Notes: generated by a model not told the origin, from the letters alone. A DNA stretch of 39,835 nt from an uncultured Methanosarcinales archaeon (GCA_964398115.1 CAYNLP010000007.1:1-39835); one strand, 5' to 3'; positions 524 through 39,752 are shown, counted from the first letter of the stretch. Numbers and translations: made by a program.

Positions 524-545
524 TATTTATTGTCTATATTGAAAA
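524..545 (+). repeat. 22-bp dispersed intergenic motif, copy 1 (TATTTATTGTCTATATTGAAAA)
   Basis: Matches copies at 4457-4478 (minus), 16401-16422 and 39731-39752, each with 1 mismatch. Confidence 0.85.
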
Positions 546-602
546 ATATTATTTTTAGAGTTTCGGTAATGTTTTAAAAAAGAACACGTTTAATTTCACA
601 AT

Positions 603-1502
603 ATGAAACTCACATTCCTCGGTACTAATTCGATGGTGCCCACCAAGGAGAGAAACGTAACCGGCCACTTTCTTGAATATGACGGTCATGGAATCTTGGT
701 AGATTGTGGTGAAGGCACTCAGCGTCAGATGAACAAGGCAGGTATTAATCGGTTGCGTGTGAACAAAATTTTGATAACGCATTGGCATGGCGACCACGTC
801 GCGGGATTGATTGGATTATTACAAACTATAGGTAATGAAGAAAACGCTCCAACTATCGAGATTTACGGACCGCCTGGGACGAAGCAGAATCTGATGTATT
901 TGATGAAAGCCACGTTGCACAGTTCAAACCTAGAGATTGGGGTGAAAGAACTCGATCCGGCTGGAGTTGAGAAGTTTAGTGAGGAGGAAGATTATTATCT
1001 CGAGGCGGTTTGGATGGATCATCAAGTGGATTGTCTAGCATACCGTTTTGTAGAGAAAGATAAGAGAAAGATAGATATGAACAAAGCTAACCGTCTGGGA
1101 CTAGAAGAAGGTCCTAAGATTGGCGAGTTGAAGGAAGGGCAAGAAGTAGAAACTGATAACAGTGTGATTAAACCTGAAGATGTGAGCTATATTGAAGAAG
1201 GAAGGAAGGTCACTTTCATAATGGATACCTTGCTCAATGACAATTGTTACGATATTTCTCAACGAAGTGATTTACTCGTATGCGAGGCAACTTTCTTATC
1301 TGACTTGGAAGAAAAAGCAACTGAGTTTAAACACTTAACCGCTGAACAAGCGGCGCAAATTGCGGATGAAGCTGAAGTAAAAAGATTGATACTAACTCAT
1401 TTCAGCCAGCGTTACAGAGATACTCAATCATTAGTGGAAGAAGCGAAAAAAATATTTGCAAATACTCAAGCAGCGGAAGACTTTATGGAAGTAGAAATAT
1501 GA
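603..1502 (+). CDS. rnz: Ribonuclease Z (tRNA 3' processing)
   Basis: LGT..PTKERN N-terminus, DCGEGTQRQ, THWHGDH metallo-beta-lactamase motif, GP exosite arm, EATF, KHLT, LTHFSQRY. Confidence 0.95.
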   Translation: MKLTFLGTNSMVPTKERNVTGHFLEYDGHGILVDCGEGTQRQMNKAGINRLRVNKILITHWHGDHVAGLIGLLQTIGNEENAPTIEIYGPPGTKQNLMYLMKATLHSSNLEIGVKELDPAGVEKFSEEEDYYLEAVWMDHQVDCLAYRFVEKDKRKIDMNKANRLGLEEGPKIGELKEGQEVETDNSVIKPEDVSYIEEGRKVTFIMDTLLNDNCYDISQRSDLLVCEATFLSDLEEKATEFKHLTAEQAAQIADEAEVKRLILTHFSQRYRDTQSLVEEAKKIFANTQAAEDFMEVEI

Positions 1503-2107
1503 TAACTGTTGAAGAAATGCATAACTTAGAAGAAAAAGCAATCAAAGAAGGTGTTAGTGAAGCAGAACTCATGGAAAATGCGGGCAGACAAGTCTTTCAA
1601 GTCTTAAACCAACAATACGATTTAGAAAAATATTCAATAGTCGTGTTTGCAGGAGGAGGAAACAACGCAGGTGATGGATTTGTCGCAGCTCGACACCTTG
1701 CAGAAAAGTGTCCTGTAACGATAATATTTTTAGGAAGCGAAGAAAAACTCAGTCAAGTTTCTAAAAACAATTTTGACAAAGTCAAGGATAAAGTCACGAT
1801 TAGGGAAAGTGATGAAACTAATTTAGAAAAGTTAAAGATAAACGGAAACGTCATATTGTTAGACGCGATGCTCGGCTTGGGAATAAAAGGAAGTTTGAGA
1901 GAGCCTTACAAGACAGCAGTAGATTTTTACAACAAGCAAGAAGGAGAGAAAGTTTCTATAGACATACCAACTGGGATGAATCCGGACACTGGAGAACCTA
2001 CTGGTGAAGAAAGCTGTAAATTTGATTTAATCATTACTTTTCATGATATTAAGAAAGGATTAGTTAATTACGACGACAAGGTTGAAGTAGTAGATATTGG
2101 ACTTTAA
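1499..2107 (+). CDS. nnrE: NAD(P)H-hydrate epimerase (stand-alone YjeF_N)
   Basis: LMENAG, GGGNNAGDGFVAARHL, DAMLGLG, SIDIPTG motifs; ATGA overlap with rnz. Confidence 0.92.
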   Translation: MITVEEMHNLEEKAIKEGVSEAELMENAGRQVFQVLNQQYDLEKYSIVVFAGGGNNAGDGFVAARHLAEKCPVTIIFLGSEEKLSQVSKNNFDKVKDKVTIRESDETNLEKLKINGNVILLDAMLGLGIKGSLREPYKTAVDFYNKQEGEKVSIDIPTGMNPDTGEPTGEESCKFDLIITFHDIKKGLVNYDDKVEVVDIGL

Positions 2108-2316
2108 GACTTGGTCGCCAAGTTAATATCTTCAGCCTTTACAGTCTTCCTGCCAGCGTGTTGTGCTAGTTTAATACCAGCGTTTGAAACTTCTTCAGCT
2201 TTTTCTTCTAAGAAGTCTCGAAGTTCTTCTTTTGCGCCTTCAGAAACTCTTTCTGCTCCGGCTTTTTTCATTATTCTATCCATCGCTGCCAATGGAATGT
2301 CTCTTTTCCTCCCCAT
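2104..2316 (-). CDS. Archaeal histone (HMf family)
   Basis: IPLAAMDRIMKKAGAERVS...AQHAGRKTVKAEDINLA is the canonical archaeal histone fold; ATG at 2316 preferred over TTG at 2322. Confidence 0.95.
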   Translation of the reverse strand: MGRKRDIPLAAMDRIMKKAGAERVSEGAKEELRDFLEEKAEEVSNAGIKLAQHAGRKTVKAEDINLATKS

Positions 2317-2453
2317 TTTCAAGTATAACGGTCTAAAAGACTTTTATTTATAAAATTATTGTTTTTTTGCCGTTTTTTGCCTAAAACAAATAAAATGCAC
2401 TGGACATTCGCCCGCGTAACCTATTTAAATTCATTTATATAAAGTGTTAAGTA

Positions 2454-2858
2454 ATGGGAGTCAGCTTCGGCGGAAGAAAAGCCAAAGGCAGCAAAGCCGA
2501 GAACGAACTACTCAACAAATTCTGGAAAAACGACTGGGGGGGCATAAGATGCGCAGGAAGCGGAAGCGCAAGAAACCCAACACCAGACATCTTAGTAGGT
2601 AATGGCGATAGAGTATTAGCCATGGAAGTAAAAATAACCAAAGACGACAAGAAATACTTCAAAAACGAGGAAATAGAAGCATTAAGAAAATTCGCAGGCG
2701 CATTCGGAGCACACCCAATGGTAGGCGTACAATTCAGCAACAACAACTGGTACTTCCTAAGCTTAGACGACCTACGCAGCACAAAGAAAAGCTACGTCGC
2801 TAGTGTAGATCGAGCAATGAGCCGAGGACTAACATTTGAGGAACTCCTACAAATTTAA
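2454..2858 (+). CDS. hjc: Archaeal Holliday junction resolvase
   Basis: KGSKAENEL, R.AGSG, PDILVG, MEVK PD-(D/E)XK core, EIEALRKFAGAFGAHP. Confidence 0.92.
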   Translation: MGVSFGGRKAKGSKAENELLNKFWKNDWGGIRCAGSGSARNPTPDILVGNGDRVLAMEVKITKDDKKYFKNEEIEALRKFAGAFGAHPMVGVQFSNNNWYFLSLDDLRSTKKSYVASVDRAMSRGLTFEELLQI

Positions 2859-3586: not shown

Positions 3587-4203
3587 TTATACTCCTCTGA
3601 AAGATACTTGTGTTCAGGCTTGTATATAAAAGTGGTGTCGGTGTCGAAATAACCACACATGAACTTGTCTAATGGGATACCTGTTCTTTGACTTAACATT
3701 TGCGCGTAGAAGTAGGTCTGTGTCGTAGCATATTTTTCTCGATGAGCATTAGGTTTGTAATCCCAAATCCATATCTTGTCACCTTCGAAACGGATGAGAT
3801 CTATATGACCGCTCAACGGATTGCTTTCCTCAAATAAGTTATGATAACTTGCTTCGTCAGGCTCTACCCAAATAGGGGCTTCCACACACAAAGTTTGCGG
3901 GTCGTTATGCAACATGTAAACCTGCACGTTACTATGAGCGGTGTTATAATTATCCCACTCCAAGCCTTCTCTAGCAAAACTCGTCACAGGATGATTATCA
4001 ACTTCTTCCGGCTCGATACCCAAATCTAACTTCAACTTACTACTTCGAGGACCATCTTGAAATTTTTCATCCGGGCAATCATCCAGCATAGAAAATAAAT
4101 ACTGCTGAAGGTCAGAATATTCACTTGGTAACTTGTTAAGACGTCCCTTATGGATGCGATAAAAATAGTACCATCCGTGGTCTAAAGAGACGTGGTCGAT
4201 CAC
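3580..4203 (-). CDS. PD-(D/E)XK nuclease-family protein
   Basis: VEAPI..., GHIDLIR...IWDYK and QxxxYA motifs of the RecB/Cas4-like nuclease fold; GTG start overlaps the upstream stop (GTGA). Confidence 0.8.
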   Translation of the reverse strand: MIDHVSLDHGWYYFYRIHKGRLNKLPSEYSDLQQYLFSMLDDCPDEKFQDGPRSSKLKLDLGIEPEEVDNHPVTSFAREGLEWDNYNTAHSNVQVYMLHNDPQTLCVEAPIWVEPDEASYHNLFEESNPLSGHIDLIRFEGDKIWIWDYKPNAHREKYATTQTYFYAQMLSQRTGIPLDKFMCGYFDTDTTFIYKPEHKYLSEEYKC

Positions 4204-4379
4204 TCTTCTATCATCTCTTCTATTTTCTCTTCTTCTTCAAGTATGTGCTTAGCCATCTTTTCAACGTGATGATCGATTCTTGCAATCCTTCTTTCCAAAA
4301 GAACCATTACTCTAAGGCTGTAAACGATAGCTGCTAACGTTCCAATAATGACTGCTAATATTACGTGTTCGAGTGCCAT
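4200..4379 (-). CDS. Small single-TM protein with charged helical tail (59 aa, not in ORF track)
   Basis: MALEHVILAVIIGTLAAIVYSLRVMVLLERRIARIDHHVEKMAKHILEEEEKIEEMIEE*; GGAGGT RBS upstream; stop overlaps next gene's start. Confidence 0.8.
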   Translation of the reverse strand: MALEHVILAVIIGTLAAIVYSLRVMVLLERRIARIDHHVEKMAKHILEEEEKIEEMIEE

Positions 4380-4456
4380 AACAAACCTCCACCTCTTTTT
4401 CTTAAATGATTAAAGCCCATCATGGCTATAAAAAGTTTTCTAAACAAACACCTTTC

Positions 4457-4478
4457 TTTTCAATATAGAAAATAAATA
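4457..4478 (-). repeat. 22-bp dispersed intergenic motif, copy 2 (TATTTATTTTCTATATTGAAAA on minus)
   Basis: 21/22 identity to copy 1; lies between divergent genes. Confidence 0.85.
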
Positions 4479-4508
4479 ATTTAAATACAAACCCATTACA
4501 CAACTACA

Positions 4509-4967
4509 ATGGATTTCATAGACCGAAGCGGAAACTACCGAGAAAAACCACGAGACAGAAAAGTCTACGAAAAAACCGCCGTGTACGGCGCAGCCAAGAA
4601 AGACGGACACATCTACGTAGTAAAACCAAAAACCATAGAAAGATGGGAACTACCAGGAGGCAACCTAAAAGAAGGAGAAAGCCTCAAACAAGCACTCAAA
4701 AGAGAAATAAAAACAAAAACTGGATACGAAATAGAAATAATCAAACCAGACATAATAGAACCAAAAACAGAACGATTCTACGCATACGACACAGATGAAT
4801 ATAGCATGAAAAAAATGCACTTCTACCGAATAAAACTAAAAGAAGAATTAAAAGACGAAATAGATGAAGAAATCAAACAAGCAAAGTGGGTGCCAGAAAC
4901 CAGCCTAAAACCAACCAACTCAAACGCAACCCAGTTAGAAGTGTTTGACGAGTTAAGAAAATCATAA
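4509..4967 (+). CDS. NUDIX-fold hydrolase
   Basis: WELPGGNLKEGESLKQALKREIKTKTG Nudix box, with the terminal EE replaced by TK. Confidence 0.85.
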   Translation: MDFIDRSGNYREKPRDRKVYEKTAVYGAAKKDGHIYVVKPKTIERWELPGGNLKEGESLKQALKREIKTKTGYEIEIIKPDIIEPKTERFYAYDTDEYSMKKMHFYRIKLKEELKDEIDEEIKQAKWVPETSLKPTNSNATQLEVFDELRKS

Positions 4968-5020
4968 CCTTTATATACTGCATGTAGCTATTCTAAACAC
5001 CGAGGGAGACACACAAAACA

Positions 5021-5287: not shown

Positions 5288-5320
5288 TCTTTTAATACTC
5301 GACACTTCTAATACCAATTG

Positions 5321-6820: not shown

Positions 6821-8202
6821 AGAGATTCCTCCAACAATGGGGTCCGTTGATAATAGTACTCATGGCCATAACCTTCTCCCTAGCCCCAGTAATGGTTAGA
6901 TCCGCCCAAGACCCACTCGTCCCCCTCGGAGAAAGCTACTACAACATGAGAATATCACAAGAACTGCAAGAAAACCCCACATTACAAAATGACCCCTTAC
7001 AAGAAAGACCATACAACCCCAACCTATACCACTACTTACTAGCACTACTACAACTATTCCTTTCAGATCAAGGATTGATAATGAGTTCCATAGCACTATC
7101 AGTAGCAAGCGCGTTCCTACTGCAAAAAGCATTAAGAGACTACGGCATGGACGAAAGAGCAATACTCGCCGTAGCCATATTCATACTATCACCCATATAC
7201 ATATACACCTCAACCACGCTAACCCCCTACACACTCACACTCTTCCTAATCACACTAACCCTTTACCTAAGAAATTGGTCCGCCGCCATACCAGCAGGAT
7301 TAACCGCTCTCACCAACCCATCCGTATTCCTAATACTAACAATAACTATGATAATACACAACCACCTAGGCGAAGAAAAACACCCCGCTTACTTAACTCT
7401 AGGCGTTGGGACAATACTCACAGGAGCAGCATATCTCTTCCTCGACTACATCCCCATAATAAAACTATTCAATGGAGGACTAGCACCCTTAAACTACATC
7501 ACCGACTTCGGCGCCACAGTAGGATACAGCTTCTTCGGCCTACTCCTAGCTATAGTGTCAATCCTACTATTCTGGAAAGATGACAAAAAATTCAGCAAAG
7601 GCGGCGTGATATACCTACTCCTACTACTAACGTCAACCACACTCGAACCAACACGACTACTCATAAACATAATAACCTCGATATACGCCGCATACGCCCT
7701 CTACTTCTTCATAACCCGAGAATGGATAGTATTAAACCTCAAAGACTTAACACTACTAATACTCTTCAGCAGCTTACTATTCTCCGCAGTATCATTCACA
7801 ACCCGAACATCCAACATGGAACCCACACACGAAACAATAAAAACACTAGAAACCATCAAAAACCAACAAATAAAAGGAACAGTCTTCAGCGATCCACAAA
7901 ACGGGTTCTTAATACAATACTACGCACAAAGAAAAAGCTATATGGACGAACTAAGCTTCCTATACAAAGGATACGAAGAGAAAAAACAAACCACACAAAC
8001 ATTATACACCAACTCAAAACCAAAAATAACCAAAAAACTCCTAGACGAAAACGACATAAGCTACATATATATAGACCAAAAAATGCAAGACAGGCTATGG
8101 CAAACACGAAATCAACTGCCTCTCGTCCTAGAACTCAGCGAAAACTTTATTAAACTCACAGATTTTCAAAACAGACAAGCTTGGCTCTACATAAGAACTT
8201 GA
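6817..8202 (+). CDS. GT-C / AglB(STT3)-like membrane protein, paralog 2
   Basis: ESYYNMR...DPL...NLYHY, many TM helices, VFSDPQNGFLIQYYAQRKSYMD...NDISYIY; same layout as upstream gene; GGAGGTG RBS and ATGA overlap. Confidence 0.6.
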   Translation: MKRFLQQWGPLIIVLMAITFSLAPVMVRSAQDPLVPLGESYYNMRISQELQENPTLQNDPLQERPYNPNLYHYLLALLQLFLSDQGLIMSSIALSVASAFLLQKALRDYGMDERAILAVAIFILSPIYIYTSTTLTPYTLTLFLITLTLYLRNWSAAIPAGLTALTNPSVFLILTITMIIHNHLGEEKHPAYLTLGVGTILTGAAYLFLDYIPIIKLFNGGLAPLNYITDFGATVGYSFFGLLLAIVSILLFWKDDKKFSKGGVIYLLLLLTSTTLEPTRLLINIITSIYAAYALYFFITREWIVLNLKDLTLLILFSSLLFSAVSFTTRTSNMEPTHETIKTLETIKNQQIKGTVFSDPQNGFLIQYYAQRKSYMDELSFLYKGYEEKKQTTQTLYTNSKPKITKKLLDENDISYIYIDQKMQDRLWQTRNQLPLVLELSENFIKLTDFQNRQAWLYIRT

Positions 8203-8212
8203 GGCTTTTAAA

Positions 8213-9457: not shown

Positions 9458-9459
9458 TC

Positions 9460-10110: not shown

Positions 10111-10111
10111 T

Positions 10112-11771: not shown

Positions 11772-11807
11772 GTTGAGAAATTGAAACAATGCCTTTATTA
11801 TAAATGT

Positions 11808-15951: not shown

Positions 15952-16353
15952 TTATTTTTCCATGACTGTCACTTCAATATTTCTATTACCTCTTGGACCA
16001 TCCAGTTCTACAAGCATAACTGATTGCCACCTTCCAAGTTTTAACTCACCTTGCCTTACAGGGATTGTTTCACCCGCGCCTATAGTCGCCGCTAAGATGT
16101 GGCTTTGAGCGTTTCCATCAACTTGGTCGTGTTCGTAATTGTTGTGTTCTGGAATGGCTTTATTCCACGCTTTAAACACGTCTTGAGGTATGTCCTCATC
16201 CCAATTTTCATTTATTATGATCCCAGCTGTACTGTGCAGGGCAAATACGTGACATATTCCTTCATCAATATTGCTTTTCTTAACAAGTTTATTCACTTTG
16301 TCTGTGATGTCGATCATTTCCTGATGTTCAGAAGTGCTTATCGTTAATTTCAT
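15952..16353 (-). CDS. yjbQ: YjbQ/UPF0047 family protein
   Basis: IDIT, HSTAGIIINEN, YEHD..DGNAQSHI, LGRWQ.V.LVELDGPR; likely start ATG 16353. Confidence 0.92.
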   Translation of the reverse strand: MKLTISTSEHQEMIDITDKVNKLVKKSNIDEGICHVFALHSTAGIIINENWDEDIPQDVFKAWNKAIPEHNNYEHDQVDGNAQSHILAATIGAGETIPVRQGELKLGRWQSVMLVELDGPRGNRNIEVTVMEK

Positions 16354-16400
16354 ATTGTCTGGAAAAACTTTTGAAGTTAAAAAGAATTGCGGTTCAAGCA

Positions 16401-16422
16401 TATTTATTGTCCATATTGAAAA
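16401..16422 (+). repeat. 22-bp dispersed intergenic motif, copy 3 (TATTTATTGTCCATATTGAAAA)
   Basis: 21/22 identity to copy 1; between divergent yjbQ and gnd. Confidence 0.85.
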
Positions 16423-16475
16423 TAAATATTTGTTAAACACAACTTTTTTATTCCAACAAAACCCGAACAGAAAAT

Positions 16476-17924
16476 ATGATAAACAAAATAGGCATGATTG
16501 GCCTCGGTGCCATGGGAAAAAGCCTTTCTCTAAACATCCAAAACAACGGCTACGAAGTAATAGCCTTCGACATTGATGAAAATGCAAGAAAAAGAGCAGA
16601 AGAACTAGGAATAGACACAGCAAATAGCAATGCAGAACTAGCAGAAAGTTTTAACGGAAGAAAAGCAATCTGGTTAATGGTACCACCCAGCATCGTTGAC
16701 AACGTCTTAGAAGAACTAGACCCCCACCTACAAGAAGGAGATATAATAATAGAAGGAGGAAACAGTCACTTCAAAAACACAGAAGAAAGAGTAAAATGGG
16801 CAGAAGAAAGAAATCTACAATTCCTAGGAACTGGGGTATCAGGAGGAGAAGAAGGAGCACTACAAGGGCCATCCATAATGCCCGGCGGACACAAACAAGC
16901 ATACGAATCAATACAACACATACTAGAAGATGTAGCTGCCGAAGCCAACGGAGAACCCTGCGTCACATACCTCGGAAAAGGAGGTGCAGGACACTTCGTC
17001 AAAATGGTACACAACGGAATAGAATATGGGATAATGCAAAGCATAACAGAAGCATACCACATCATGCAAGAAGGCTTAGAAATGAGTTACAAAGAAATCC
17101 ATCAACACTTCAGCCAATGGGCAGAAAGCAGACTCGGCGGATATCTCATGGAAATCAACGCCGACATAATGAACACCATCGACGAAAAAACAGGGAATCC
17201 AATTGTAGAATCAATCCTTGATACAGCCAAACACAAAGGAACAGGAAAGTGGACTAGCCAAACAGCCTACGATATGGGCGTGCCCGTACACGGAATAAGC
17301 TCAGCAGTTCTATCAAGAATACTATCAGCCTATAGAGAAATGAGAGACGACGCCAGTGAAAAATTCAATTATGAAGGAAGTGCAGAACTAACCTACAAAG
17401 AAGTAGAACAAGCACTGTTCAGCTCAGTACTGATGAACTACGCACAAGGATTCCACGTCTTACAAAGAGCAAAAGAAGAATACGATTATGACCTAAACCT
17501 AAAAGACATAGCAGCTATTTGGAGAGCTGGATGTATAATAAGAAGTGTACAACTCCAACCAATAATGGAAGTTTTCTCACAAAATCCCAACTTACAAAAC
17601 ATACTCTTATCAGATCAATTCAGCAAAAAAATAAATGAAAGCACAAAAGGACTTAGAAAAACAGTGTCCGCAACAGCTCAGATGGGCATTCCCATCCCAG
17701 ACATGTCACACCAACTAGCCTACTACGACAGCTTAAGAAGAGGAAGACTACCAACCGCCAGTTTAATACAGGCTATGAGAGATTACTTCGGAAGCCACAC
17801 ATATCGGAGGATAGACGAAGAAGGAGACTTCCACACCTTATGGACAGAAGACAAAAAAGAAATAACAAAAGAAGACACGACAGAGTACTACCAGAAAAAA
17901 GCTAAAAAACATTCAGAAAAATGA
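16476..17924 (+). CDS. gnd: 6-phosphogluconate dehydrogenase, decarboxylating (long GndA type)
   Basis: GLGAMG, GGNS, GVSGGEEGA..GPSIMPGG, GHFVKMVHNGIEY, KGTGKWT, WRAGCIIRS, QAMRDYFGSHTY. Confidence 0.97.
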   Translation: MINKIGMIGLGAMGKSLSLNIQNNGYEVIAFDIDENARKRAEELGIDTANSNAELAESFNGRKAIWLMVPPSIVDNVLEELDPHLQEGDIIIEGGNSHFKNTEERVKWAEERNLQFLGTGVSGGEEGALQGPSIMPGGHKQAYESIQHILEDVAAEANGEPCVTYLGKGGAGHFVKMVHNGIEYGIMQSITEAYHIMQEGLEMSYKEIHQHFSQWAESRLGGYLMEINADIMNTIDEKTGNPIVESILDTAKHKGTGKWTSQTAYDMGVPVHGISSAVLSRILSAYREMRDDASEKFNYEGSAELTYKEVEQALFSSVLMNYAQGFHVLQRAKEEYDYDLNLKDIAAIWRAGCIIRSVQLQPIMEVFSQNPNLQNILLSDQFSKKINESTKGLRKTVSATAQMGIPIPDMSHQLAYYDSLRRGRLPTASLIQAMRDYFGSHTYRRIDEEGDFHTLWTEDKKEITKEDTTEYYQKKAKKHSEK

Positions 17925-24413: not shown

Positions 24414-27400
24414 TTACTCATTAAAAGCTCTGTGTACATAAAATAGGACTGCTCCTGAGAATAATATCAATGCTAAAATAACTCCNNNNNNNNNNNNNNN
24501 NNNNNNNNNNNNNNNNNNNNNNNNNNNNNNNNNNNNNNNNNNNNNNNNNNNNNNNNNNNNNNNNNNNNNNNNNNNNNNNNNNNNNGGGATGTTATTATCA
24601 ATTTGGAAAGCATCTAACTTAACGCCTTTAAACTCTGGATGGTTGCTTGCGTTTATAACCTCTAAGTAAGTTTCTGTTAAACTTTCACTGGGTGTGAACG
24701 CAATCTTTTGTAAATCGACACCTTCTTCGTTAATCATTACTGTCTTTTCCACATTAGCTGGTAAGTTTGCAAAAGTTACTTTTCCTGTGGCGAAGAAACC
24801 ACCAGCTCCTCCTCCACCTCCGCCGCCTCCTCCACTGCTGCTGGAGGTAGAGGTGCTGTCGCTACTTGTATCAACTTGATATTGCCTTACTGAACTGTGA
24901 TCTAAACCGCTGATTTTCAACCTGTTCCCTAGGTCTGTACAGGTATATTGTCCTTGACTGTTACCTCCGCTTGTACATTGTAGCTTGGTTTCGTCAGAAG
25001 CTGAACAGTCTGAAGTTATATCGTTGGAGTCAATATTATTTGAATCTTTAATACAAACTCCATCGTAACTACCTGTTTCGTTCATATAAACGGTTTTTGT
25101 TTTACTTTGACTTGCTAAACTTAATTTTTGAACGGTTATAGTATTCTTGTCAGTATCGTTCTTCTCAGTAATGTTTATCTTTGAGAAGTTCAAACTGTCT
25201 TTGTCAAAGTTGAAGTCGAAATATAGTACAGTGTTAGTAGTGTTACTCACGTTCTGTGTGAAGTTAACGGTTTGGTTACCGGAGAAATCCCCTGAGAGGT
25301 TAGCACTTTTATTGATCTTAATTGAAAGATTTACTTTGTTTCCTTTCACACTGGATGCGTTTCCTTCTACCTCGCCAGCTATTGTTATAACGGTGCTTTC
25401 ACTACCGTTTAGATTGCCTATTGTGTCGGAGGCGTGTATGGTGATAGTGCAGTTTTCAATGCCACATCCTAGGTTGGTAGAGTTTGTAGTGGTGCTGTAC
25501 GTGTTGTTTGAGCCTGCAGTCATGGAAAGCATTGTTGATCCGTCTCCACTTGCATTTACTTCTTGAACTGTTTTAACACTGTCTGTAACTTGTACTGAAA
25601 TGTTGAAGGTTGTTCCTTTCCTGACTGTTGTGTCATTCACGCTTAAACTTGTAACCTGGGGCGGCGTGGTGTCAACAGTGAAGTTATATTCTGTACTATT
25701 CTTGTTACCGGGAGCGCTGCCTCCATAGTCCCAAGTTGTCACGTTTACAGTGTGTTCTCCATCAGACAGGGTGGTGTTGAATGTGCAAGTTTCCGCGTCG
25801 GATCCTTGTGTTACATTCTGACAACTCATATTAGATTTTGTGAAAACTGTTGTATCTATGGTTACGTTTGCAGAGCTTATGCTTGTTCCTGTACCGTTGA
25901 ACGTGTAGTTAAACATTACAGGGTTTTGACTTACATTTGAATTCTCTACTGGTTCATGAGGAGTTATAGTAGGTGTTTTGTTATCCGTTACGTTGTATCC
26001 GGAGAAGCCTGTGACGCTGAATGTTAAGTTACCTACTTTTGATGAGAAGTTTGGCTTGAATGGTCCTGGCACCCAGGTAGTGTTGGTAACGGCTTGACTG
26101 GTGTTGTCAGTTACGACGTCAGGTTCTGAGCTGAAAGGTAGGTCGTAGAAGGTTATTGACGTGTTAGTGTTCAAACTGGCGAAGAATGTCGTATTGACGA
26201 AAATCCTTGATTGTTTATGAGTTTGGGGAGGTGCAATCTTCACATCGATTGCTTGGCTTAAGTTGCTGAATTTTTGTGCTTGTTGTCTCGTGCTCATGTT
26301 GACGCTGGTAAAGTTAATCTTCATTACTTTCTTGAATGTGTTACCCCAAGGAAGTTGTCTATTATTGTACTTGGAGCTTCCGTTCCTTTCAAAAACGAGG
26401 ATCATGTTGATAGTTTCAAAGTCTGGGACTTTGCTGAAGTTGGTTGTTTCATCTTTTGCAAATCTTGTACCGTTTCTTCCGGGTGGTGTCGTGAAGTTAT
26501 ATAGTATTACTGTTTGACTAACAGTAGTTACTCTGGTATTACCTGAGTTTTCTGTAGCGCTTACAGTTATGTTATATGGGAGGAATGGTCTTGTGAGGTC
26601 TGACTTGCTAACGGTGAAGTTTACTTCATGCAAGCCAGAAGTATTATTATAAGTTAGGTTGGCTTTTCTGAAAGTAACCGTTGTTGAAGTAAAACTTCCG
26701 TTAACTAATTTGAAAGTTTTTGCGGAGATGTTAACAAATGCTGAGCTAATATTTTCTCCGGGTGAAATGTTCACGTTCAAATTCATTTTACTGTTGTTAA
26801 CGAAAGTACTGTAGAATCTGTCCGGTTCATCCAGACTAACACCCTGTATGGTTGGTTTGCTTGTATCAATGTTAACCACGTTGTCGTTGGTGGTAGTGCT
26901 TAATGGTAGGTTGTCTCTGCAGGTAACGTTCCATGTATGCGCTCCATCACTCAAGCCGGTGATTGTGTAGCTAGTGTTAGACAAGTTATTTTGATTGGTT
27001 GCTCCTTCCACTTTCAAATCACAAACAGGATTGCTATCTAGGTTGTCACTGGCTGTCCAGTTGAAGGTAACGTTGTTAGTGCTCAAGTTTGCATTATCTA
27101 CCGGCGAGACCAGGGTAACGTTTGGTGCTGTGTCGTCTACGGTTATTTCTATGGTTGTGGTGTCGTTTAAGTTTCCGACGGTGTCTTCTGCATAGAATCT
27201 TAATGTGCAGGTACCTCCACTACTGCATCCAAGGTTGCTAGCGTTAGTTATAACACTGTAAGTTCCATCACTTGCATTCATTGAAACATTCGTTGAACCA
27301 TCATCGCCAGTTAATTCCATACTAACTATTTCAGTGTGGATTTCACCTGCTTGAACACTTACGTTTATGGATTGATTACTTGAGACAAGGTTGTCAGAAT

Positions 27401-29834
27401 CGTTCACACTTGGATTTTGAACGCTTGGCGGTGTTTGATCTACTGTTACGGTGAAAGTACTACTAGTGTTAGAGTTTTGCTTGTTATCTCGGCATGTAAC
27501 GTTCCAATCATGACTTCCCTCTCCAAGATTCATGGAGTAGTTGTCAGTAACTCCACTAGAAGTTGTAAGGTTATTTTGTGGTGTACCGTTTACTGTTAAG
27601 TCACATGCTAAGTTGTTAGCGACTGTATCAGTAGGCGTCCAGGTAAAGTTCACGTTCGAACTAGTCGTATTAGCATTGTCAAGAGGGTTGTTCAAAGTTA
27701 TTGATGGTGGTGTGTCATCTACGGTTACGTTTGTAGTTGTGGTATCGTTAACATTACCGGTAACGTCTGTGCTGAAGAAAGTTAGGTTACAAACTTGGTC
27801 TACACCACATCCGAGGCTGGAAGCGTTTGTACTAACTACAAATTGAGTTACATTCTGAAACATCGAAACCTGCGTAGTTCCACCATCCCCTGAAACGTTA
27901 ACTCCTGAAACTCCATTTACGTCTGTTGAATTGACACTTATGTTAAGAACCTGTGTAGAGTTTACAACATTATCTGTTGTTTGAGGATTAGTTACACTTG
28001 GTGGTGTGTTATCTACTATTATCGTAACTCCTTCAGTATTGTTCACGTTACCCGCGCCATCTGTTGCTGTTATTGTGATTCCGCATGGACCGTCTGTATT
28101 ACATCCTAGTGATGAAGCATCAGTTGTACTCGTATAATTATTTCCACTCGCTTGTGTTAGATTAACAGGTGATGAATTCGCGGCTGTCACCGAGGATATG
28201 GTGTTAGTTTCATTTACAATCGCGCTAAGTACAAAGCTATCAGTACTATTTACAACATTATCAGAATCATCCGTTGTGACATTGCTCACGTTAGGTGCTG
28301 TGTTGTCTACCGTGAAAGTGGTTGTTGTAGTATCGTTTAAGTTACCTACGGTGTCAGTTGCAAAGAATGTTAACGTGCATATTCCGTCAGTTCCACAACC
28401 AAGATTTGTTGGATTATCAGTTGCGGTATAAACCCCGCCGCTTATACTCATTGAAACTATCGTGTTTCCACCATCACCTGATACATTAACACTACTAACA
28501 TTTGTTGTTGAGTCACTGACGCTAACGTTTATACTGATTGATGAAGAATTTTGCACTTCACTATCATTCACGTTTGGATTAGTAACACCTGGAGGAGTTG
28601 TATCGACTATTAAGGTGTTTGTGTGGGTGTTGTTCAAGTTTCCAGCTGTGTCGTAAGCGTAGAATGTCAAGGTGCACGTACTGGTACAACCTAAGTTGTT
28701 TGCGGTTGTAACTGATTTGAAAGTAGTACCTCCAGTAGAGTTCATATTAACCATGTTAGTACCACCGTTACCGGAAACATTAATGTCTGAAATTCCACTT
28801 GGATCAAACGCGTCAACTGAAACATTTACTTGCTGTGTAGAATTGACAGGCCCAGTTTCTGTACCGTTCTCAACCTTGGGAGGAGTGTCGTCAACATTCA
28901 AAGTAACAGATTCAGTATTGTTTACATTGCTGGCGTTATCCGTTGCTGTTATTGTGATTCCGCATGGACCGTCTGTAGTACATCCTAATGAAGAAGCGCT
29001 GGTATTAGCAGTGTAATTGTTTGATCCTGCAAGTGTCATGGCTACTGGTGAAGAGTTTGAAGCACTTACAGACTTTATACCATTTATATCCACAACTGTT
29101 GCGTCTACTATAAAGTTTTCAGTACTGTTCACTATATTGTCATTGTCGCTTGTACCTACGCTGGTCACGTTTGGTGCCGTATCATCCACTGTTATAGTGG
29201 TACTAGCTCCACTTGCAGGACCATTTGTGTTACCTGCTTCGTCATTAGATCCAAATTCAACGGTGCAAATACCTTCGCTACTACAACCGATGTTAGAAGG
29301 AGTGGTTTTTGCTTGCCAAACTCCACCAGATTCGTTCATACTTACTGTGTTTCCTCCACTGTCACCAGTTACTGTAACTGAAATGACGCTAGTGGTAGCG
29401 TCAGAAACGGTCACGTTAATATATAATGGTGTGCTGTTTTGAACTGTTGAATCATTCGTTACAGCGTTTGACTCTGCGGGTGCCGTGTTATCTACCGTGA
29501 TGTTTTTGTTTTCATCACTTACAGTTGTGCCGGTGCTGTTCTTTGCTGTAACGTTTAAAGAATGATTACCATCAGCAAATGTAGTGGTATCGCTAGTGTT
29601 TATGAACTCCGTGCCCGTGTTGTTATTCTTTATAGTTTGAACAGTGCTTCCTGTTTCGTTTATCCACGTAAACGTTACGTTTGCACTCGCATCCGTGGTT
29701 GCGTTTAAACTAACACTTCCTGAAACAACCGCGTGGCTAGAAGGATTGTTTAAAGTTACAGAAGTAAGGCCTGAAACGATAGGTAATATGAATAAAAGCG
29801 TTGTAATCACTAACGTTACTCTCTTAATAGTCAC
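24414..29834 (-). CDS. Large surface glycoprotein with tandem Ig-like repeats (gap near C-terminus)
   Basis: Signal peptide; approximately 97-aa repeats ending VDxTxP; very many NxS/T sequons; Ser/Gly linker; C-terminal TM beyond a 100-N gap; GGAGG RBS. Confidence 0.85.
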   Translation of the reverse strand: MTIKRVTLVITTLLFILPIVSGLTSVTLNNPSSHAVVSGSVSLNATTDASANVTFTWINETGSTVQTIKNNNTGTEFINTSDTTTFADGNHSLNVTAKNSTGTTVSDENKNITVDNTAPAESNAVTNDSTVQNSTPLYINVTVSDATTSVISVTVTGDSGGNTVSMNESGGVWQAKTTPSNIGCSSEGICTVEFGSNDEAGNTNGPASGASTTITVDDTAPNVTSVGTSDNDNIVNSTENFIVDATVVDINGIKSVSASNSSPVAMTLAGSNNYTANTSASSLGCTTDGPCGITITATDNASNVNNTESVTLNVDDTPPKVENGTETGPVNSTQQVNVSVDAFDPSGISDINVSGNGGTNMVNMNSTGGTTFKSVTTANNLGCTSTCTLTFYAYDTAGNLNNTHTNTLIVDTTPPGVTNPNVNDSEVQNSSSISINVSVSDSTTNVSSVNVSGDGGNTIVSMSISGGVYTATDNPTNLGCGTDGICTLTFFATDTVGNLNDTTTTTFTVDNTAPNVSNVTTDDSDNVVNSTDSFVLSAIVNETNTISSVTAANSSPVNLTQASGNNYTSTTDASSLGCNTDGPCGITITATDGAGNVNNTEGVTIIVDNTPPSVTNPQTTDNVVNSTQVLNISVNSTDVNGVSGVNVSGDGGTTQVSMFQNVTQFVVSTNASSLGCGVDQVCNLTFFSTDVTGNVNDTTTTNVTVDDTPPSITLNNPLDNANTTSSNVNFTWTPTDTVANNLACDLTVNGTPQNNLTTSSGVTDNYSMNLGEGSHDWNVTCRDNKQNSNTSSTFTVTVDQTPPSVQNPSVNDSDNLVSSNQSINVSVQAGEIHTEIVSMELTGDDGSTNVSMNASDGTYSVITNASNLGCSSGGTCTLRFYAEDTVGNLNDTTTIEITVDDTAPNVTLVSPVDNANLSTNNVTFNWTASDNLDSNPVCDLKVEGATNQNNLSNTSYTITGLSDGAHTWNVTCRDNLPLSTTTNDNVVNIDTSKPTIQGVSLDEPDRFYSTFVNNSKMNLNVNISPGENISSAFVNISAKTFKLVNGSFTSTTVTFRKANLTYNNTSGLHEVNFTVSKSDLTRPFLPYNITVSATENSGNTRVTTVSQTVILYNFTTPPGRNGTRFAKDETTNFSKVPDFETINMILVFERNGSSKYNNRQLPWGNTFKKVMKINFTSVNMSTRQQAQKFSNLSQAIDVKIAPPQTHKQSRIFVNTTFFASLNTNTSITFYDLPFSSEPDVVTDNTSQAVTNTTWVPGPFKPNFSSKVGNLTFSVTGFSGYNVTDNKTPTITPHEPVENSNVSQNPVMFNYTFNGTGTSISSANVTIDTTVFTKSNMSCQNVTQGSDAETCTFNTTLSDGEHTVNVTTWDYGGSAPGNKNSTEYNFTVDTTPPQVTSLSVNDTTVRKGTTFNISVQVTDSVKTVQEVNASGDGSTMLSMTAGSNNTYSTTTNSTNLGCGIENCTITIHASDTIGNLNGSESTVITIAGEVEGNASSVKGNKVNLSIKINKSANLSGDFSGNQTVNFTQNVSNTTNTVLYFDFNFDKDSLNFSKINITEKNDTDKNTITVQKLSLASQSKTKTVYMNETGSYDGVCIKDSNNIDSNDITSDCSASDETKLQCTSGGNSQGQYTCTDLGNRLKISGLDHSSVRQYQVDTSSDSTSTSSSSGGGGGGGGGAGGFFATGKVTFANLPANVEKTVMINEEGVDLQKIAFTPSESLTETYLEVINASNHPEFKGVKLDAFQIDNNIXXXXXXXXXXXXXXXXXXXXXXXXXXXXXXXXXXGVILALILFSGAVLFYVHRAFNE
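28063..28977. repeat. Intragenic direct repeat, 36 bp identical (28063-28098 and 28942-28977)
   Basis: GTTGCTGTTATTGTGATTCCGCATGGACCGTCTGTA twice, 879 bp (293 codons) apart. Confidence 0.85.
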
Positions 29835-30324: not shown

Positions 30325-30354
30325 AATCAAGCTTTTATAGAAAAGACGACTTTA

Positions 30355-30582: not shown

Positions 30583-30629
30583 AACGTGTTAGAAAGGTTT
30601 GAAAATTTATAAAAGTAATATTTAAGATT

Positions 30630-32455: not shown

Positions 32456-32474
32456 TGAATTAAACCTCCATTAA

Positions 32475-33269: not shown

Positions 33270-33271
33270 CT

Positions 33272-33757: not shown

Positions 33758-33762
33758 TTCTT

Positions 33763-38088: not shown

Positions 38089-38192
38089 ATAACTGTTTAC
38101 TTTCCCTCCTTTTTAAATATGACATAACTGGATTTTATATAGTTTTCCTTAGAAAAACAAAGAGTTTAAAAAGTAGTGATAAATAGTAATCG

Positions 38193-38210
38193 CTGTCCCG
38201 AATGGGACAG
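38193..38210 (+). promoter_or_regulatory. 5' UTR hairpin upstream of cold-shock gene
   Basis: CTGTCCC-GAAT-GGGACAG perfect 7-bp stem, about 20 nt after TTTAAAAA (38165-38172) and before AGGAGG RBS. Confidence 0.6.
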
Positions 38211-38236
38211 AGTTGAACAAAGGAGGAAAAACTATA

Positions 38237-38458
38237 ATGCCAGAAGAAGATGAAGAAAGACACACTGGAACTGTAANNNNNNNNNNGTTTGATCGACAGA
38301 AAGGATATGGCTTCATCGAAAGGGAAGAAGGCGATGATGTCTTTGTACATCACAGTCAAGTTCCTGAAGGCGAAGCACTCGCTGAAGATGATGAAGTATC
38401 CTTCGAAGTCGTTGAAACCGAGAAAGGTCTCCAAGCACAAGAAATTCAACTAGAGTAG
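38237..38458 (+). CDS. csp: Cold-shock domain protein (contains assembly gap)
   Basis: TGTV..FD..KGYGFI (RNP1), DVFVH (RNP2), KGLQA; AGGAGG RBS. Confidence 0.95.
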   Translation: MPEEDEERHTGTVXXXXFDRQKGYGFIEREEGDDVFVHHSQVPEGEALAEDDEVSFEVVETEKGLQAQEIQLE

Positions 38459-38563
38459 GATACTTCTCAAAAAAAAGTAGGAGGTTTTGTCTATTTCTTT
38501 TTGTTATTTTTATCTACGAAAAATTTTTAACCTAACAAATTCTAGATGTAAGTAGTTGATAGT

Positions 38564-38830
38564 ATGAGTGAAGTCGTTGGCCCAGGAGTAGACGTTCCAA
38601 TAAGAAGCTTAGATGACGTGTTAGAAGAAGTTGAAAAATGGGCGGAATGTAAGGAAGATGGCGGGCATGAATACCGAGATGTTAGTTCTCCGATAGGCAT
38701 TCCTAATGGAGCAGTTATACAAAAATGTAGAAGATGCGGATCACCTGGTAGTAGATCAACAAGCAGAGGCGAGGTTATGGATTATAGGGAACGCATGCAA
38801 AAAGCGCTTAAGACAGAAGTAATATATTAA
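38564..38830 (+). CDS. Small hypothetical protein, possible Zn-binding
   Basis: C-x5-H ... C-x2-C; upstream TATA-like TTTTTAA. Confidence 0.55.
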   Translation: MSEVVGPGVDVPIRSLDDVLEEVEKWAECKEDGGHEYRDVSSPIGIPNGAVIQKCRRCGSPGSRSTSRGEVMDYRERMQKALKTEVIY

Positions 38831-38831
38831 G

Positions 38832-39689
38832 TTAAAAGACTAACGCAGCAGCTCCTAACACCCCGCTTGAATCTCCCAGTTCATTCTCTACTACTTTGCA
38901 GGACTGTCCAGAGAGTTCTAAACTGTGTTTTCTCATCTGTTCGTTTAAGTCATGGTAGACGGGGAGGTTGGAAACGCCGCCGCCCATAACGATTTTTTCA
39001 GGATTGAAGATGTTAACCAAGTTTCCGAGTCCAACTCCCATATCACTCAACACTTTTTCAATAACTTCGGAAGCTATGTCTTCATCACTTTCTAGGATGT
39101 CATCTGGTTGGGGATTTTCTAAATCCCCCCCATTTTCTTTGTATCTTCTCACAATGTTTGGTCCGGAGCAGTAGTATTCCCACGTTCCTTTTCCTCCAGG
39201 TTCAAAACCTTCTTCATTTTTGCAAATAATCATCTGTCCTATTTCTCCAGCGCCTCCAATACTTCCTCGTAAGAGTTCGCTTTCCGTTATTATTCCTCCG
39301 CCTATGCCTGTACCCCAGATGACGCCTATCATGTTTTCACAATCTCTTCCTGCTCCCCATTTGTATTCGGCTAGTGCGAAACAATTAGCATCGTTTTCGA
39401 TAACAAGATTTGGAAATTTTCTTTTCAACTTTTTCAACGCTTTATTCACTCCTTCCACATTTGGACTGCTTTCTACTTGGTTGTCATGTATAAATCCGGG
39501 GGTTCCTAAGCCAATCCCTAATATTTCTTTGTCTTTAACTTTGTCAATTACTTTTTCTACTGTGTTTACAATAGCTGAAGGTTTGGAGGGTGTTTTCATT
39601 CTTATTTTTTTATGTCTATTTCCGGTTTCATCTACCAAAGCTGCTTCTATTTTTGAACCTCCAAGGTCTACGCCAATTGAGTGTTTCAT
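38832..39689 (-). CDS. ROK-family sugar kinase (glucokinase-like)
   Basis: GVDLGGSK, ENDANCFALAE, GTGIGGG, AGEIGQ, MGGGVS, GVLGAA. Confidence 0.92.
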   Translation of the reverse strand: MKHSIGVDLGGSKIEAALVDETGNRHKKIRMKTPSKPSAIVNTVEKVIDKVKDKEILGIGLGTPGFIHDNQVESSPNVEGVNKALKKLKRKFPNLVIENDANCFALAEYKWGAGRDCENMIGVIWGTGIGGGIITESELLRGSIGGAGEIGQMIICKNEEGFEPGGKGTWEYYCSGPNIVRRYKENGGDLENPQPDDILESDEDIASEVIEKVLSDMGVGLGNLVNIFNPEKIVMGGGVSNLPVYHDLNEQMRKHSLELSGQSCKVVENELGDSSGVLGAAALVF

Positions 39690-39730
39690 ATTCTACGTTT
39701 TGGATTTTAGATGTATTTAAGATTTATCTT

Positions 39731-39752
39731 TAATTATTGTCTATATTGAAAA
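39731..39752 (+). repeat. 22-bp dispersed intergenic motif, copy 4 (TAATTATTGTCTATATTGAAAA)
   Basis: 21/22 identity to copy 1; between aldolase-like stop and ROK promoter. Confidence 0.85.

Follow-up and report, generated by a model that had tools for sequence, protein, structure and literature searches.

A promoter-proximal 30-bp palindrome and a candidate PadR-fold regulator in Woesearchaeales-type DPANN archaea

GvpE is a leucine-zipper-type activator working at one locus. The TrmB box (the Thermococcales glycolytic motif) is a TATCAC-N5-GTGATA element at sugar-metabolism promoters. RosR (VNG0258H) of Halobacterium salinarum is an archaeal PadR-family global regulator. Bacterial PadR subfamily 2 proteins (LmrR, bcPadR1/2) are described in PMC3506622 as having ~110 aa, with a winged helix-turn-helix followed by one C-terminal helix, and as binding inverted repeats as dimers, with half-sites in successive major grooves. 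According to the account in PMC2241852, the GvpE upstream activating sequence (UAS) spans 20 nt, adjoins the BRE on its upstream side, and is located between the haloarchaeal gas-vesicle promoters PA and PD. It is common to, and overlaps between, these two divergent promoters, and its distance from the BRE matters.

Here, we describe a dispersed palindrome that is probably an operator, bound by a dimeric winged-helix transcription factor with a global role, in Woesearchaeales-type DPANN archaea. We propose with moderate confidence, from comparative sequence analysis, that the binder is a PadR-fold protein of ~105 aa. This candidate DNA-binding protein is so far undescribed and is carried by nearly all relatives.

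The palindrome is a promoter-proximal site

The window, that is, the whole stretch of 39,835 nucleotides analyzed, contains four copies of the palindrome (Table 1). A sequence-only reading had listed four intergenic copies of a 22-bp motif. Allowing up to 3 mismatches, we find this 22-mer at four positions in the window and nowhere else in it: 524-545 (+, 0 mismatches), 4457-4478 (-, 1), 16401-16422 (+, 1), and 39731-39752 (+, 1). The expectation is 0.01 matches (100 dinucleotide shuffles, none reaching 4), and all four copies are indeed intergenic. The 16-bp core, with up to 3 mismatches, has 6 matches in the window vs 1.10 expected; an extra match at 8163-8178 (2 mismatches, within an ORF) was rejected as a non-member. 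The reading was also right that the core is 12/16 self-complementary (6/8 pairs, counted in the sequence), and Pfam agrees with the neighbors it had named: an RNase Z type MBL-fold gene, NUDIX plus a 59-aa protein, UPF0047 (YjbQ family) plus 6PGD, and ROK. It had described the TATTTA flank as one-sided, but the opposite side carries a partner, gAAATA. The true unit is a 30-bp palindrome, A-W-TATTTA TTgTCtATATtGAAAA gAAATA, comprising the core, 8 nt on its left, and 6 nt on its right.

Table 1. Palindrome copies, promoter elements, and neighboring genes in the window.
Feature	Coordinates	Strand	Details
Palindrome copy 1	522..551	+	core 530-545; PWM score 37.7; core end 57 nt before rnz ATG
rnz BRE/TATA	563..578	+	top match for this genome's own BRE/TATA matrix
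rnz, MBL-fold RNase Z type (copy 1 target)	603..1502	+	Pfam Lactamase_B_2
59-aa gene (copy 2 left-hand target)	4200..4379	-	Shine-Dalgarno-like GGAGG
Palindrome copy 2	4451..4480	-	core 4457-4472; between divergent genes; score 37.8
NUDIX hydrolase gene (copy 2 right-hand target)	4509..4967	+	Pfam NUDIX
UPF0047 (YjbQ-family) gene (copy 3 left-hand target)	15952..16354	-	Pfam UPF0047; ATG at 16354
Palindrome copy 3	16399..16428	+	core 16407-16422; centered between divergent genes; score 39.6
gnd BRE/TATA	16436..16451	+	16-mer begins 13 nt past core, 40 nt before ATG
gnd, 6-phosphogluconate dehydrogenase (copy 3 right-hand target)	16476..17924	+	Pfam 6PGD, NAD_binding_2
ROK-family kinase gene (copy 4 target, lineage-specific)	38832..39689	-	Pfam ROK
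ROK gene BRE/TATA	39715..39730	-	16-mer begins 6 nt past core, 41 nt before ATG
Palindrome copy 4	39729..39758	+	core 39737-39752; score 38.5; 47 nt to ROK ATG

The core ends 57 nt (copy 1) and 47 nt (copy 4) from the start codon, 53 nt from both flanking ATGs at copy 3, and 36 and 77 nt from the ATGs of the NUDIX and 59-aa genes, respectively, at copy 2. The rnz BRE/TATA 16-mer begins 17 nt past the core and 40 nt before the ATG, its modal position genome-wide; the rnz orthologue in the relative G018 matches the tRNase Z domain as well. Inspection of the sequence places the outer palindrome arm on the NUDIX side of copy 2 at the expected BRE place, followed by TTTAAATA. The 59-aa gene, for whose product no Pfam family was found, has its own BRE/TATA-like AAAACTTTTTATAG between gene and palindrome, and the right flank of copy 4 adjoins the 3′ end of a minus-strand gene leaving the window.

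The palindrome is strongly enriched across the genome. The 1.0-Mb genome holds 60 strong copies vs ~0 expected from AT-matched intergenic sequence. An iterated position weight matrix (PWM) recovers 66 sites, 60 of them scoring 22.1-43.4 and 6 scoring 14.4-16.6. With up to 2 mismatches, the 16-mer has 54 strand hits in the whole genome vs 4 for a reversed control, and whole-genome Markov controls give 0-5 hits vs 91-118 observed. The enrichment check proposed in the earlier reading yields 38 sites contained entirely in called intergenic pieces vs a mean of 0.03 (30 Markov sets). Positions C5 and G12 are invariant. Information content drops sharply to background beyond the 30 bp, and the flanks of different copies are unrelated to each other. 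The genome is 93% coding and the sites lie at gene boundaries: 17 between divergent starts and 12 with a 3′ end on one side and a 5′ end on the other. A crude ORF caller places 47/60 outside ORFs and flags the remaining 13 as inside. With ~60 copies before functionally mixed genes, the palindrome is a genome-wide site and not a single-regulon operator, as the sequence-only reading had argued, and its option of a global regulator box is supported.

Distances between palindromes and genes are constrained. That reading had the distance to TATA varying, and free variation proved wrong: the sites lie directly upstream of BRE/TATA, and the core typically ends ~45-55 nt from the start codon of a leaderless gene or from a tRNA gene. 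The start lies 38-62 nt from a core in 48 of the 76 candidate flanking genes and 45-54 nt from it in 32; three tRNA genes start 47, 55, and 63 nt away. A gene or tRNA start falls within 30-80 nt of 46/60 sites, and does so on both sides of 14/60. We show that 27/55 distances fall in 42-56 nt, vs 7.1 ± 2.6 (maximum 16) under random placement in the same spacers (2000 trials).

Relative to the ATG, BRE occupies -38 to -34 and TATA -32 to -25 across the genome, and transcripts are therefore leaderless. In 42/48 motif promoters, the BRE/TATA 16-mer begins between -38 and -44, and the gap between core and 16-mer is 4-15 nt in 34/48. No general signal at -55 was found among 307 promoters without the motif. 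The asymmetric half of the palindrome points toward the gene in 21 cases and away in 27, the split expected of a symmetric binder. Spacing to the BRE varies by approximately ±5 nt, which is looser than expected of a strictly face-of-helix activator and counts against our explanation. BRE/TATA strength does not differ between motif and non-motif promoters (median 7.84 vs 8.25, Mann-Whitney p = 0.70), and thus there is no sign of weak, activator-dependent core promoters.

The palindrome thus lies right next to BRE/TATA, on its upstream side, at leaderless promoters, with the core at approximately -63 to -48 from the start codon (equivalent to the transcription start). As an operator, a single site would often serve two divergent promoters; some sites are found before tRNA genes. 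At approximately -55 of ordinary targets, the factor would be placed beside TFB/TBP, where it would most likely aid recruitment (activation); alternatively, it may have a boundary or repressor role there.

A candidate binding protein linked to the palindrome

The palindrome is conserved among relatives within the order. Its exact pattern, TTTNCNATATNGNAAA, is present in 31/41 genomes. In five relatives, each from a different family, we counted 12-22 sites per genome and 0-3 in controls, except for G034 (17 sites, control 13). Targets are mainly housekeeping genes (replication, repair, tRNA processing, and translation), and those common to relatives include rnz, gyrB, FEN1, and cdc6. For rnz, the palindrome occurs within 120 nt upstream in 12/29 orthologous loci of relatives; for ROK, which serves as a negative control, it is upstream in 0/18.

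The candidate factor is a nearly universal, single-copy protein. In the window's genome (G000), its gene lies outside the window (contig C5:16105-16419). We find it in 37/41 relatives at 54-71% identity (41-57% for rnz), and in 153/201 genomes of a phylum sample, 148 of them from the window's order, always with one match per genome. An RGRP arm is conserved at its N-terminus. The AF2 model (pLDDT 90.6) comprises a winged helix and a C-terminal helix, the arrangement of PadR subfamily 2 (a winged helix-turn-helix, then a single C-terminal helix, in ~110 aa), and PadR-family regulators fill the top Foldseek ranks. Membership in PadR (PF03551) fails at the sequence level: with the orthologues from G018 and G033, Pfam returned nothing at E <= 1; hhalign of its alignment against the genome's own PF03551 protein gave a probability of 0.1; and a profile search of PDB sequences returned no regulator. 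The palindromic site and the modeled fold together predict that the protein dimerizes; a role for the RGRP arm is likewise putative.

The factor gene and the palindrome are linked. With at most 2 of 12 specified bases mismatched, we detected a palindrome within 100 nt upstream of the factor gene in 19/30 loci, vs 16 hits in 90.4 kb elsewhere in those loci. In 20 further genomes, it precedes the gene in 12/20, with 12 hits in 60.7 kb elsewhere. Combined, 31/50 relatives have the palindrome upstream of the factor gene, vs 0.018-0.020 hits per 100 nt elsewhere. An operator-like site above background before a factor's own gene, recurring across genomes, is characteristic of autoregulated factors. 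Distances fall into two classes, 31-37 nt (18/31) and 41-47 nt (11/31), and the palindrome often overlaps BRE/TATA. This shift onto BRE/TATA is the placement that would be expected for negative autoregulation. Among three RGRP-type homologues from other orders, one is likewise preceded by a perfect palindrome.

The linkage has exceptions. In 19/50 relatives, no palindrome lies upstream of the factor gene at up to 2 mismatches. G000 and G001 lack a site directly before the gene; there, it is last in a co-directional string, PfkB-DeoC-PPDK_N-factor, whose first promoter bears the palindrome. The 36 relatives with the factor gene hold 110 exact sites, although these kin are not independent, and seven genomes with the gene lack an exact site. 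Nine genomes without a detected factor gene have 0, 0, 1, 0, 1, 0, 5, 0, and 0 exact sites. The five belong to G171 (98% complete; control 2), where the gene was not found even at E <= 0.01. The link is one of co-location, and the gene could be a conserved target of another factor.

Other readings of the palindrome

The palindrome could instead be a structural promoter-boundary element, bound by a nucleoid protein or basal factor (a TBP/TFB/TFE variant) and not responsive to signals; it would shield close-packed promoters against read-through or mark a class of constitutive "housekeeping" promoters. The dominance of housekeeping targets, the position of sites at gene boundaries in a densely coding genome, the normal strength of the core promoters, and a candidate protein that is nearly universal, single-copy, and better conserved than rnz would all suit such a role. 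We nevertheless consider it unlikely. Of ~350 promoters whose spacers measure 70 nt or more, only ~50 bear the motif, and a general -55 signal is absent; furthermore, a sequence-specific palindrome is the form typical of dimeric regulators, and placement over BRE/TATA at the own gene is likewise typical of a regulator.

It is more doubtful still that the operator belongs to the canonical PadR-family protein (PF03551; G000 C2:62400-62909) in place of the small PadR-fold protein. The G000 gene for the PF03551 protein has a palindrome 59 nt upstream, and its G001 orthologue carries one as well, but no site occurs in the ~3.4-kb loci of the G018 (E 4e-20) and G033 (2e-25) orthologues. PadR operators are given in PMC3506622 as ATGT/ACAT inverted repeats with 8-10 nt spacing, and many G000 copies can be read as TTGT-N8-A(A/C)AA; yet PadR matches are no better than weak in G034 (E 1e-4) and G013 (6.5e-9), both of which carry the motif. 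The small protein, in comparison, has the site before its gene in 31/50 relatives.

A chromosome-maintenance site (an origin recognition box, parS, recombination site, or DNA-uptake signal), also among the options of the sequence-only reading, is highly improbable. Many dispersed, near-identical copies would be in keeping with it, as would one G000 copy located 171 nt before an orc1/cdc6 fragment and, in G013, one 174 nt before the orthologue. However, the distances to start codons and BRE/TATA are constrained, the copies are dispersed singly without clustering and mostly outside called ORFs, sites occur between divergent promoters and before tRNA genes, and conserved targets such as rnz are unrelated to replication.

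An RNA-level or mobile element (a bidirectional terminator hairpin, small RNA, or MITE remnant) is hardly credible: the palindrome can form a hairpin, both strands start T-rich, and the 12 sites flanked by one 3′ end and one 5′ end would fit, but these hairpins have little stability (-1.5 to -4.6 kcal/mol; z-scores -0.41, -0.01, -2.30, and +0.25), the 17 sites between divergent starts have nothing to terminate, it is the downstream start, not the upstream stop, to which the distance is fixed, and there is no conservation, terminal repeat, or duplication beyond 30 bp. We rejected a TrmB-type sugar regulon box, a comparison that the earlier reading had suggested, as sequence and even-centered spacing differ, targets are mostly not sugar genes, and relatives' ROK orthologues lack the site.

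Comparison with known systems

Within the searches made, the palindrome matches no known transcription-factor box, and the earlier view that it is not a described element stands. Of the described archaeal global regulators, RosR is a PadR-family example, but it has no detectable sequence similarity to the candidate factor. Its motif is GC-rich (TCGnCGA-type) and is found, on average, no more than 18 bp from ORF starts, whereas the palindrome here is AT-rich, 30 bp long, and at approximately -55. RosR is confined to haloarchaea; the candidate factor is confined to Woesearchaeales-type genomes.

In position, the palindrome resembles archaeal upstream activating sites of the GvpE, Ptr2, and TFB-RF1 type, lying directly upstream of the BRE at a constrained distance. 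Like the GvpE UAS described in PMC2241852, it adjoins the BRE and can have starts close by on both sides. The GvpE UAS, however, consists of two 8-nt portions and not a 30-bp palindrome, and activation at the palindrome is putative.

In fold, the candidate factor model has the same element order as PadR subfamily 2. The PadR operator as given in PMC3506622, ATGT-N8-10-ACAT, and the core, TT(G/T)T-N8-A(A/C)AA, share their geometry but differ in bases. Unlike PadR subfamily 2, the candidate factor fails the Pfam PadR model and hhalign and has an N-terminal RGRP arm, while the palindrome, unlike the operators of that subfamily, has conserved AT arms on the outside and a total span of 30 bp. Finally, the palindrome occurs at ~60 sites in an archaeal BRE/TATA context, vs one efflux/detoxification operon for PadR subfamily 2.

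The palindrome and its position upstream of genes

We predict with high confidence that the palindrome repeated in the window is a promoter-proximal operator at which a dimeric factor binds sequence-specifically. The sequence-only reading had described four intergenic copies of a 22-mer with mixed neighbours. All four are present, with 0 or 1 mismatch, where shuffled sequences are expected to give 0.01; every copy (4/4) is intergenic, and Pfam bears out the named neighbours, namely an MBL-fold gene of the RNase Z type (rnz), a NUDIX gene with a 59-aa gene, UPF0047/YjbQ with gnd, and ROK.

Across the window's genome, G000 (1.0 Mb, 67 contigs, 39% GC), the 16-mer core gives 31 + 23 strand hits at ≤2 mismatches, compared with 2 + 2 for the reversed control. 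A matrix iterated from the core hits finds 66 places, of which 60 score 22.1–43.4 and six score 14.4–16.6. This gap indicates that the palindrome family is discrete. First-order Markov genomes yield 0–5 hits against 91–118 strand hits observed, and 30 Markov sets of intergenic composition (32% GC) average 0.03, whereas 38 sites lie wholly within called intergenic pieces. Alignment of the 60 strong sites defines a 30-bp palindrome, A-W-T-A-T-T-T-A followed by TTgTCtATATtGAAAA and gAAATA. Information falls to background level on both sides of these 30 bp, which rules out a longer repeat or MITE. Within the core, G12 is invariant (60/60 sites) and its partner C5 is found in 73%; the motif's apparent polarity in G000 stems from a G at position 3, present at 62% of sites. 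As RNA, the palindrome forms a weak hairpin (−1.5 to −4.6 kcal/mol, z-scores −2.3 to +0.25).

A crude ORF caller, whose 1239 ORFs cover 93% of G000, places 17 of the 60 sites between divergent starts, 22 between a 3′ end and a start, five between two 3′ ends and three at contig ends; 13 are within called ORFs on that caller's flag alone. Without recourse to the caller, starts of 76 flanking genes were located ≤200 nt from a core, 48 of them at 38–62 nt and 32 at 45–54 nt. Core-to-start distances fall at 42–56 nt in 27 of 55 cases, compared with 7.1 ± 2.6 under random placement in the same spacers (maximum 16 in 2000 trials). A gene or tRNA start lies 30–80 nt away at 46/60 sites, and on both sides at 14/60. 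The 14/60 sites without any start at 30–80 nt count against the model, as does a loose site-to-BRE spacing of about ±5 nt.

Promoters were compared with those of 307 G000 genes that have an upstream spacer of ≥70 nt and no strong site. These motif-free promoters have an A-rich BRE at −38 to −34 and a TATA box at −32 to −25 from the ATG, positions which indicate that most mRNAs are leaderless. They show no signal at −55; thus, promoters in general do not share the palindrome. The BRE/TATA matrix learned on this set has the consensus AGCAAAAGTTTTATAA, and its 16-mer begins at −38 to −44 in 42/48 motif promoters, with a gap of 4–15 nt from the core in 34/48. Position and gap together place the core at about −63 to −48, its outer arm ending beside the BRE. 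Weaker core promoters at motif-bearing genes were not seen, core-promoter scores being no different from those of other promoters (p = 0.70). The asymmetric half of the site shows no association with gene orientation (toward the gene 21, away 27).

Three tRNA genes found by Rfam begin 47, 55 and 63 nt from a core. Two of these are missed by ARAGORN and probably contain introns. Beside a further site, on contig C36, a TATA-like box is followed by what we take to be a likeness to the 5′ end of a class II tRNA; neither Rfam (E ≤ 1) nor ARAGORN finds a tRNA there, and this start may mark a tRNA gene that is split or has several introns, or may be without meaning.

Coordinates of features in the window, in the rest of its genome (G000) and in related genomes (G009, G013, G018)
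Feature	Location	Positions (strand)	Length	Palindrome to gene	Remark
Copy 1	window	524-545 (+)	22 nt		precedes rnz
Copy 2	window	4457-4478 (-)	22 nt		precedes NUDIX/59-aa
Copy 3	window	16401-16422 (+)	22 nt		precedes UPF0047/gnd
Copy 4	window	39731-39752 (+)	22 nt		precedes ROK
Longest ORF of the window	window	24414-29834 (-)	1806 aa		single open reading frame
Candidate-factor gene	G000, contig C5	16105-16419			outside the window
tRNA gene	G000, contig C2, locus L001	1572-1698	127 nt	55 nt
tRNA gene	G000, contig C4, locus L104	473-568	96 nt	63 nt
Site beside tRNA-like start	G000, contig C36	446-461
tRNA-like start	G000, contig C36, locus L097	~510-535		~50 nt	right of the site
orc1/cdc6 site	G000, contig C8	552-567		171 nt
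orc1/cdc6 site	G013, locus L066	1501-1516		174 nt
ROK and candidate-factor genes	G009, contig C8	173266-174545			co-directional, ROK directly upstream
Three-palindrome locus	G018, contig C1, locus L077	760954-763711	2.8 kb

Target genes and conservation in relatives

Pfam assigns a family (E ≤ 1e-5) to 43 of the 76 flanking proteins in G000. Targets in replication, repair and nucleotide metabolism comprise family-B DNA polymerase (on two contigs), FEN1, RNase HII, gyrase B, photolyase, ScpA, cytidylate kinase and two NUDIX proteins. RNA processing and translation are represented by two MBL-fold proteins (one of them rnz), RNase P Rpr2, GatB, EF-1 beta, L21e, L34e, a YchF-type GTPase and an ABC ATPase; redox and membrane functions by SOD, two DoxX, multicopper oxidase, CDGSH, TauE and ThiF; and sugar metabolism by gnd, ROK, PfkB and inositol monophosphatase. 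One regulator, a PF03551 PadR, is also a target. Such a mixed set is as expected for a global factor. A rescan of 30 Pfam-less flanking proteins for further regulators (E ≤ 0.05) gave nothing convincing, the best match being a weak RHH_3 (0.014).

The palindrome is conserved beyond G000. An 18-mer tuned to this genome has matches in 32/41 genomes of the order, mostly 1–9 strand hits (controls 0–3). The palindromic pattern TTTTCNATATNGAAAA, at ≤1 mismatch, finds 12–22 sites each in five genomes from five families, with controls of 0–3 in four of the five and 13 in G034. The exact pattern TTTNCNATATNGNAAA occurs in 31/41 genomes (13 sites in G000, 16 in its relative G001 and 0–9 in the others; controls 0–2), and the flanking arms are likewise conserved.

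Several orthologous targets recur between G000 and a relative: rnz (with G018), gyrB (with G033), FEN1 and a nucleotidyltransferase (with G001), and orc1/cdc6 (with G013). Among the rnz loci of relatives, 12/29 carry the palindrome ≤120 nt upstream (elsewhere, 25 hits in 104 kb), which argues that copy 1 of the window is an old, conserved site. The ROK loci of relatives carry it upstream in 0/18 cases, which argues that copy 4 is lineage-specific.

The orc1/cdc6 sites are set well beyond the usual distance of about 47 nt, and their distance is kept between two families; this upstream region could be an origin. In G018, three palindromes share one short locus. One separates a tRNA-intron endonuclease gene (40 nt) from rnz (49 nt), another lies 186 nt before a TFE-alpha gene, and another has no called gene nearby.

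A small PadR-fold protein as candidate factor

We lean towards a small PadR-fold protein of about 105 aa as the putative binder of the palindrome. An all-against-all comparison of flanking proteins returned one unannotated pair (106 aa in G018, 111 aa in G033; 59% identical), with a core 43 nt upstream of each. The candidate-factor family has no Pfam match at E ≤ 1 and no relative among PDB sequences. One copy per genome is found in 37/41 relatives. Across the phylum, the gene is present in 153/201 sampled genomes, 148 of them in the window's order and five in other orders; the matchless genomes include 20 listed, of which six are in the window's order, and 28 more besides. At E ≤ 1e-5, 2763 relatives are present in a large protein collection; the label is “hypothetical” for most and DUF2513 for a few.

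The palindrome often stands before the candidate's own gene. Scored at ≤2 mismatches in 12 specified bases and ≤100 nt upstream, it is found at 19/30 loci, with 16 hits in 90.4 kb in the rest of the same loci, and at 12/20 loci in further genomes, with 12 hits in 60.7 kb elsewhere. A recognisable site at this gene was not found in 19/50 relatives. Homologues of the RGRP type in other orders have a perfect palindrome upstream in one of three cases. The distance to the ATG is 31–37 nt in 18/31 and 41–47 nt in 11/31; in the shorter class, the palindrome's right arm reads as the BRE and the next bases as the TATA box.

Neither G000 nor G001 has a palindrome directly before the candidate-factor gene, which in G000 encodes 104 aa. 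In both, the gene ends a co-directional string, PfkB-DeoC-PPDK_N-factor, whose first promoter has the palindrome (at 45 nt and 39 nt, respectively). A relative, G009, has a ROK gene in place of PfkB-DeoC-PPDK_N. Seven genomes with the gene show no exact palindrome. Conversely, a 98%-complete genome of the window's order, G171 (160 contigs), carries exact palindromes at five places (control 2), of which four read TTTTCTATATAGAAAA, and a search relaxed to E ≤ 0.01 detected no candidate-factor gene in it; unless the gene falls in an assembly gap, G171 is a counter-example. A canonical PadR (PF03551) was rejected as binder: a site lies upstream of the G000 copy, but within the genus only.

An AlphaFold2 model from the 29-sequence alignment (pLDDT 90.6) gives the order helix, short strand, helix, recognition helix, long beta wing and C-terminal helix. 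The first eight residues, disordered in the model, hold an invariant G-R-(P). PadR-family regulators head the Foldseek ranking (probability 1.0, E about 1e-3, TM about 0.5); among them are LmrR and operator-bound PadR of Bacillus subtilis. Model and ranking thus indicate a winged-helix regulator fold of the PadR/MarR type. By sequence, the candidate does not fall within PadR (Pfam at E ≤ 1; hhalign).

Among the 29 aligned orthologues, the recognition helix (G000 residues 46–52, R-x-I-Y-Y-H-L) has Thr in G000 alone, the others having S, V, G or L. The sites of G000 are mostly TTGTC, not TTTTC or TTTAC. Together, these may represent protein–operator co-variation, in a single case.

Proposed mechanism and comparison with known systems

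A dimer of the candidate would set its recognition helices in two major grooves at TTnTC and GAnAA, centred 12 bp apart. Its wings and RGRP arms would read the minor grooves of the central ATAT and outer AAATA, which would account for a footprint as long as 30 bp despite the protein's small size. At ordinary targets, the dimer would sit just upstream of TFB/TBP, and one dimer could serve two divergent promoters. At its own gene, the site lies over the BRE/TATA, so that repression would be expected. Activation from −55 is predicted only tentatively.

More doubtful still is the following joint prediction. The candidate may be a near-universal, lineage-defining accessory factor of Woesearchaeales-type DPANN, from an undescribed family in which an AT-hook-like RGRP arm is joined to a PadR-like fold, that marks a second promoter class. 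From the 30-bp palindrome at about −55, it would drive or gate leaderless promoters in both directions, including those of tRNA, core replication, repair and tRNA-processing genes, and would throttle its own gene from the BRE/TATA-overlapping copy. Its regulon would have expanded several-fold in the genus.

To our knowledge, almost nothing is known of gene regulation in DPANN archaea, because these archaea are uncultivated and their regulators mostly unannotated. The full texts searched on DPANN/Woesearchaeota promoter motifs and transcription factors hold no description of the motif, the protein family or their link. Four 12-mer forms of the core returned primers and unrelated sequences alone, and DUF2513, the name on some NCBI records of the candidate, one unrelated paper. 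What emerges is a testable pair. Its operator is sharply delimited at 30 bp, with about 60 sites mapped and a core regulon that is conserved; its protein is a 105-aa candidate carried by almost all genomes sampled from the order. If true, this pair would be the first global regulator–operator system described for the clade, offering a handle for reading metatranscriptomes and an annotation for more than 2,700 “hypothetical” proteins. It would further supply an example, in Archaea, of two divergent leaderless promoters sharing a single palindromic site upstream.

Each kind of element involved has precedents, whether palindromic operators, winged-helix factors that regulate their own genes or upstream sites in archaea. 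Proteins of PadR subfamily 2 are about 110 aa long, form dimers and bind ATGT/ACAT repeats spaced 8–10 nt (PMC3506622). Another PadR-family protein, RosR, acts as a global regulator; its motif is a 20-bp palindrome, and one site is at the gene for RosR itself (PMC4287449). The GvpE UAS is one site serving two divergent promoters, as we propose here (PMC2241852).
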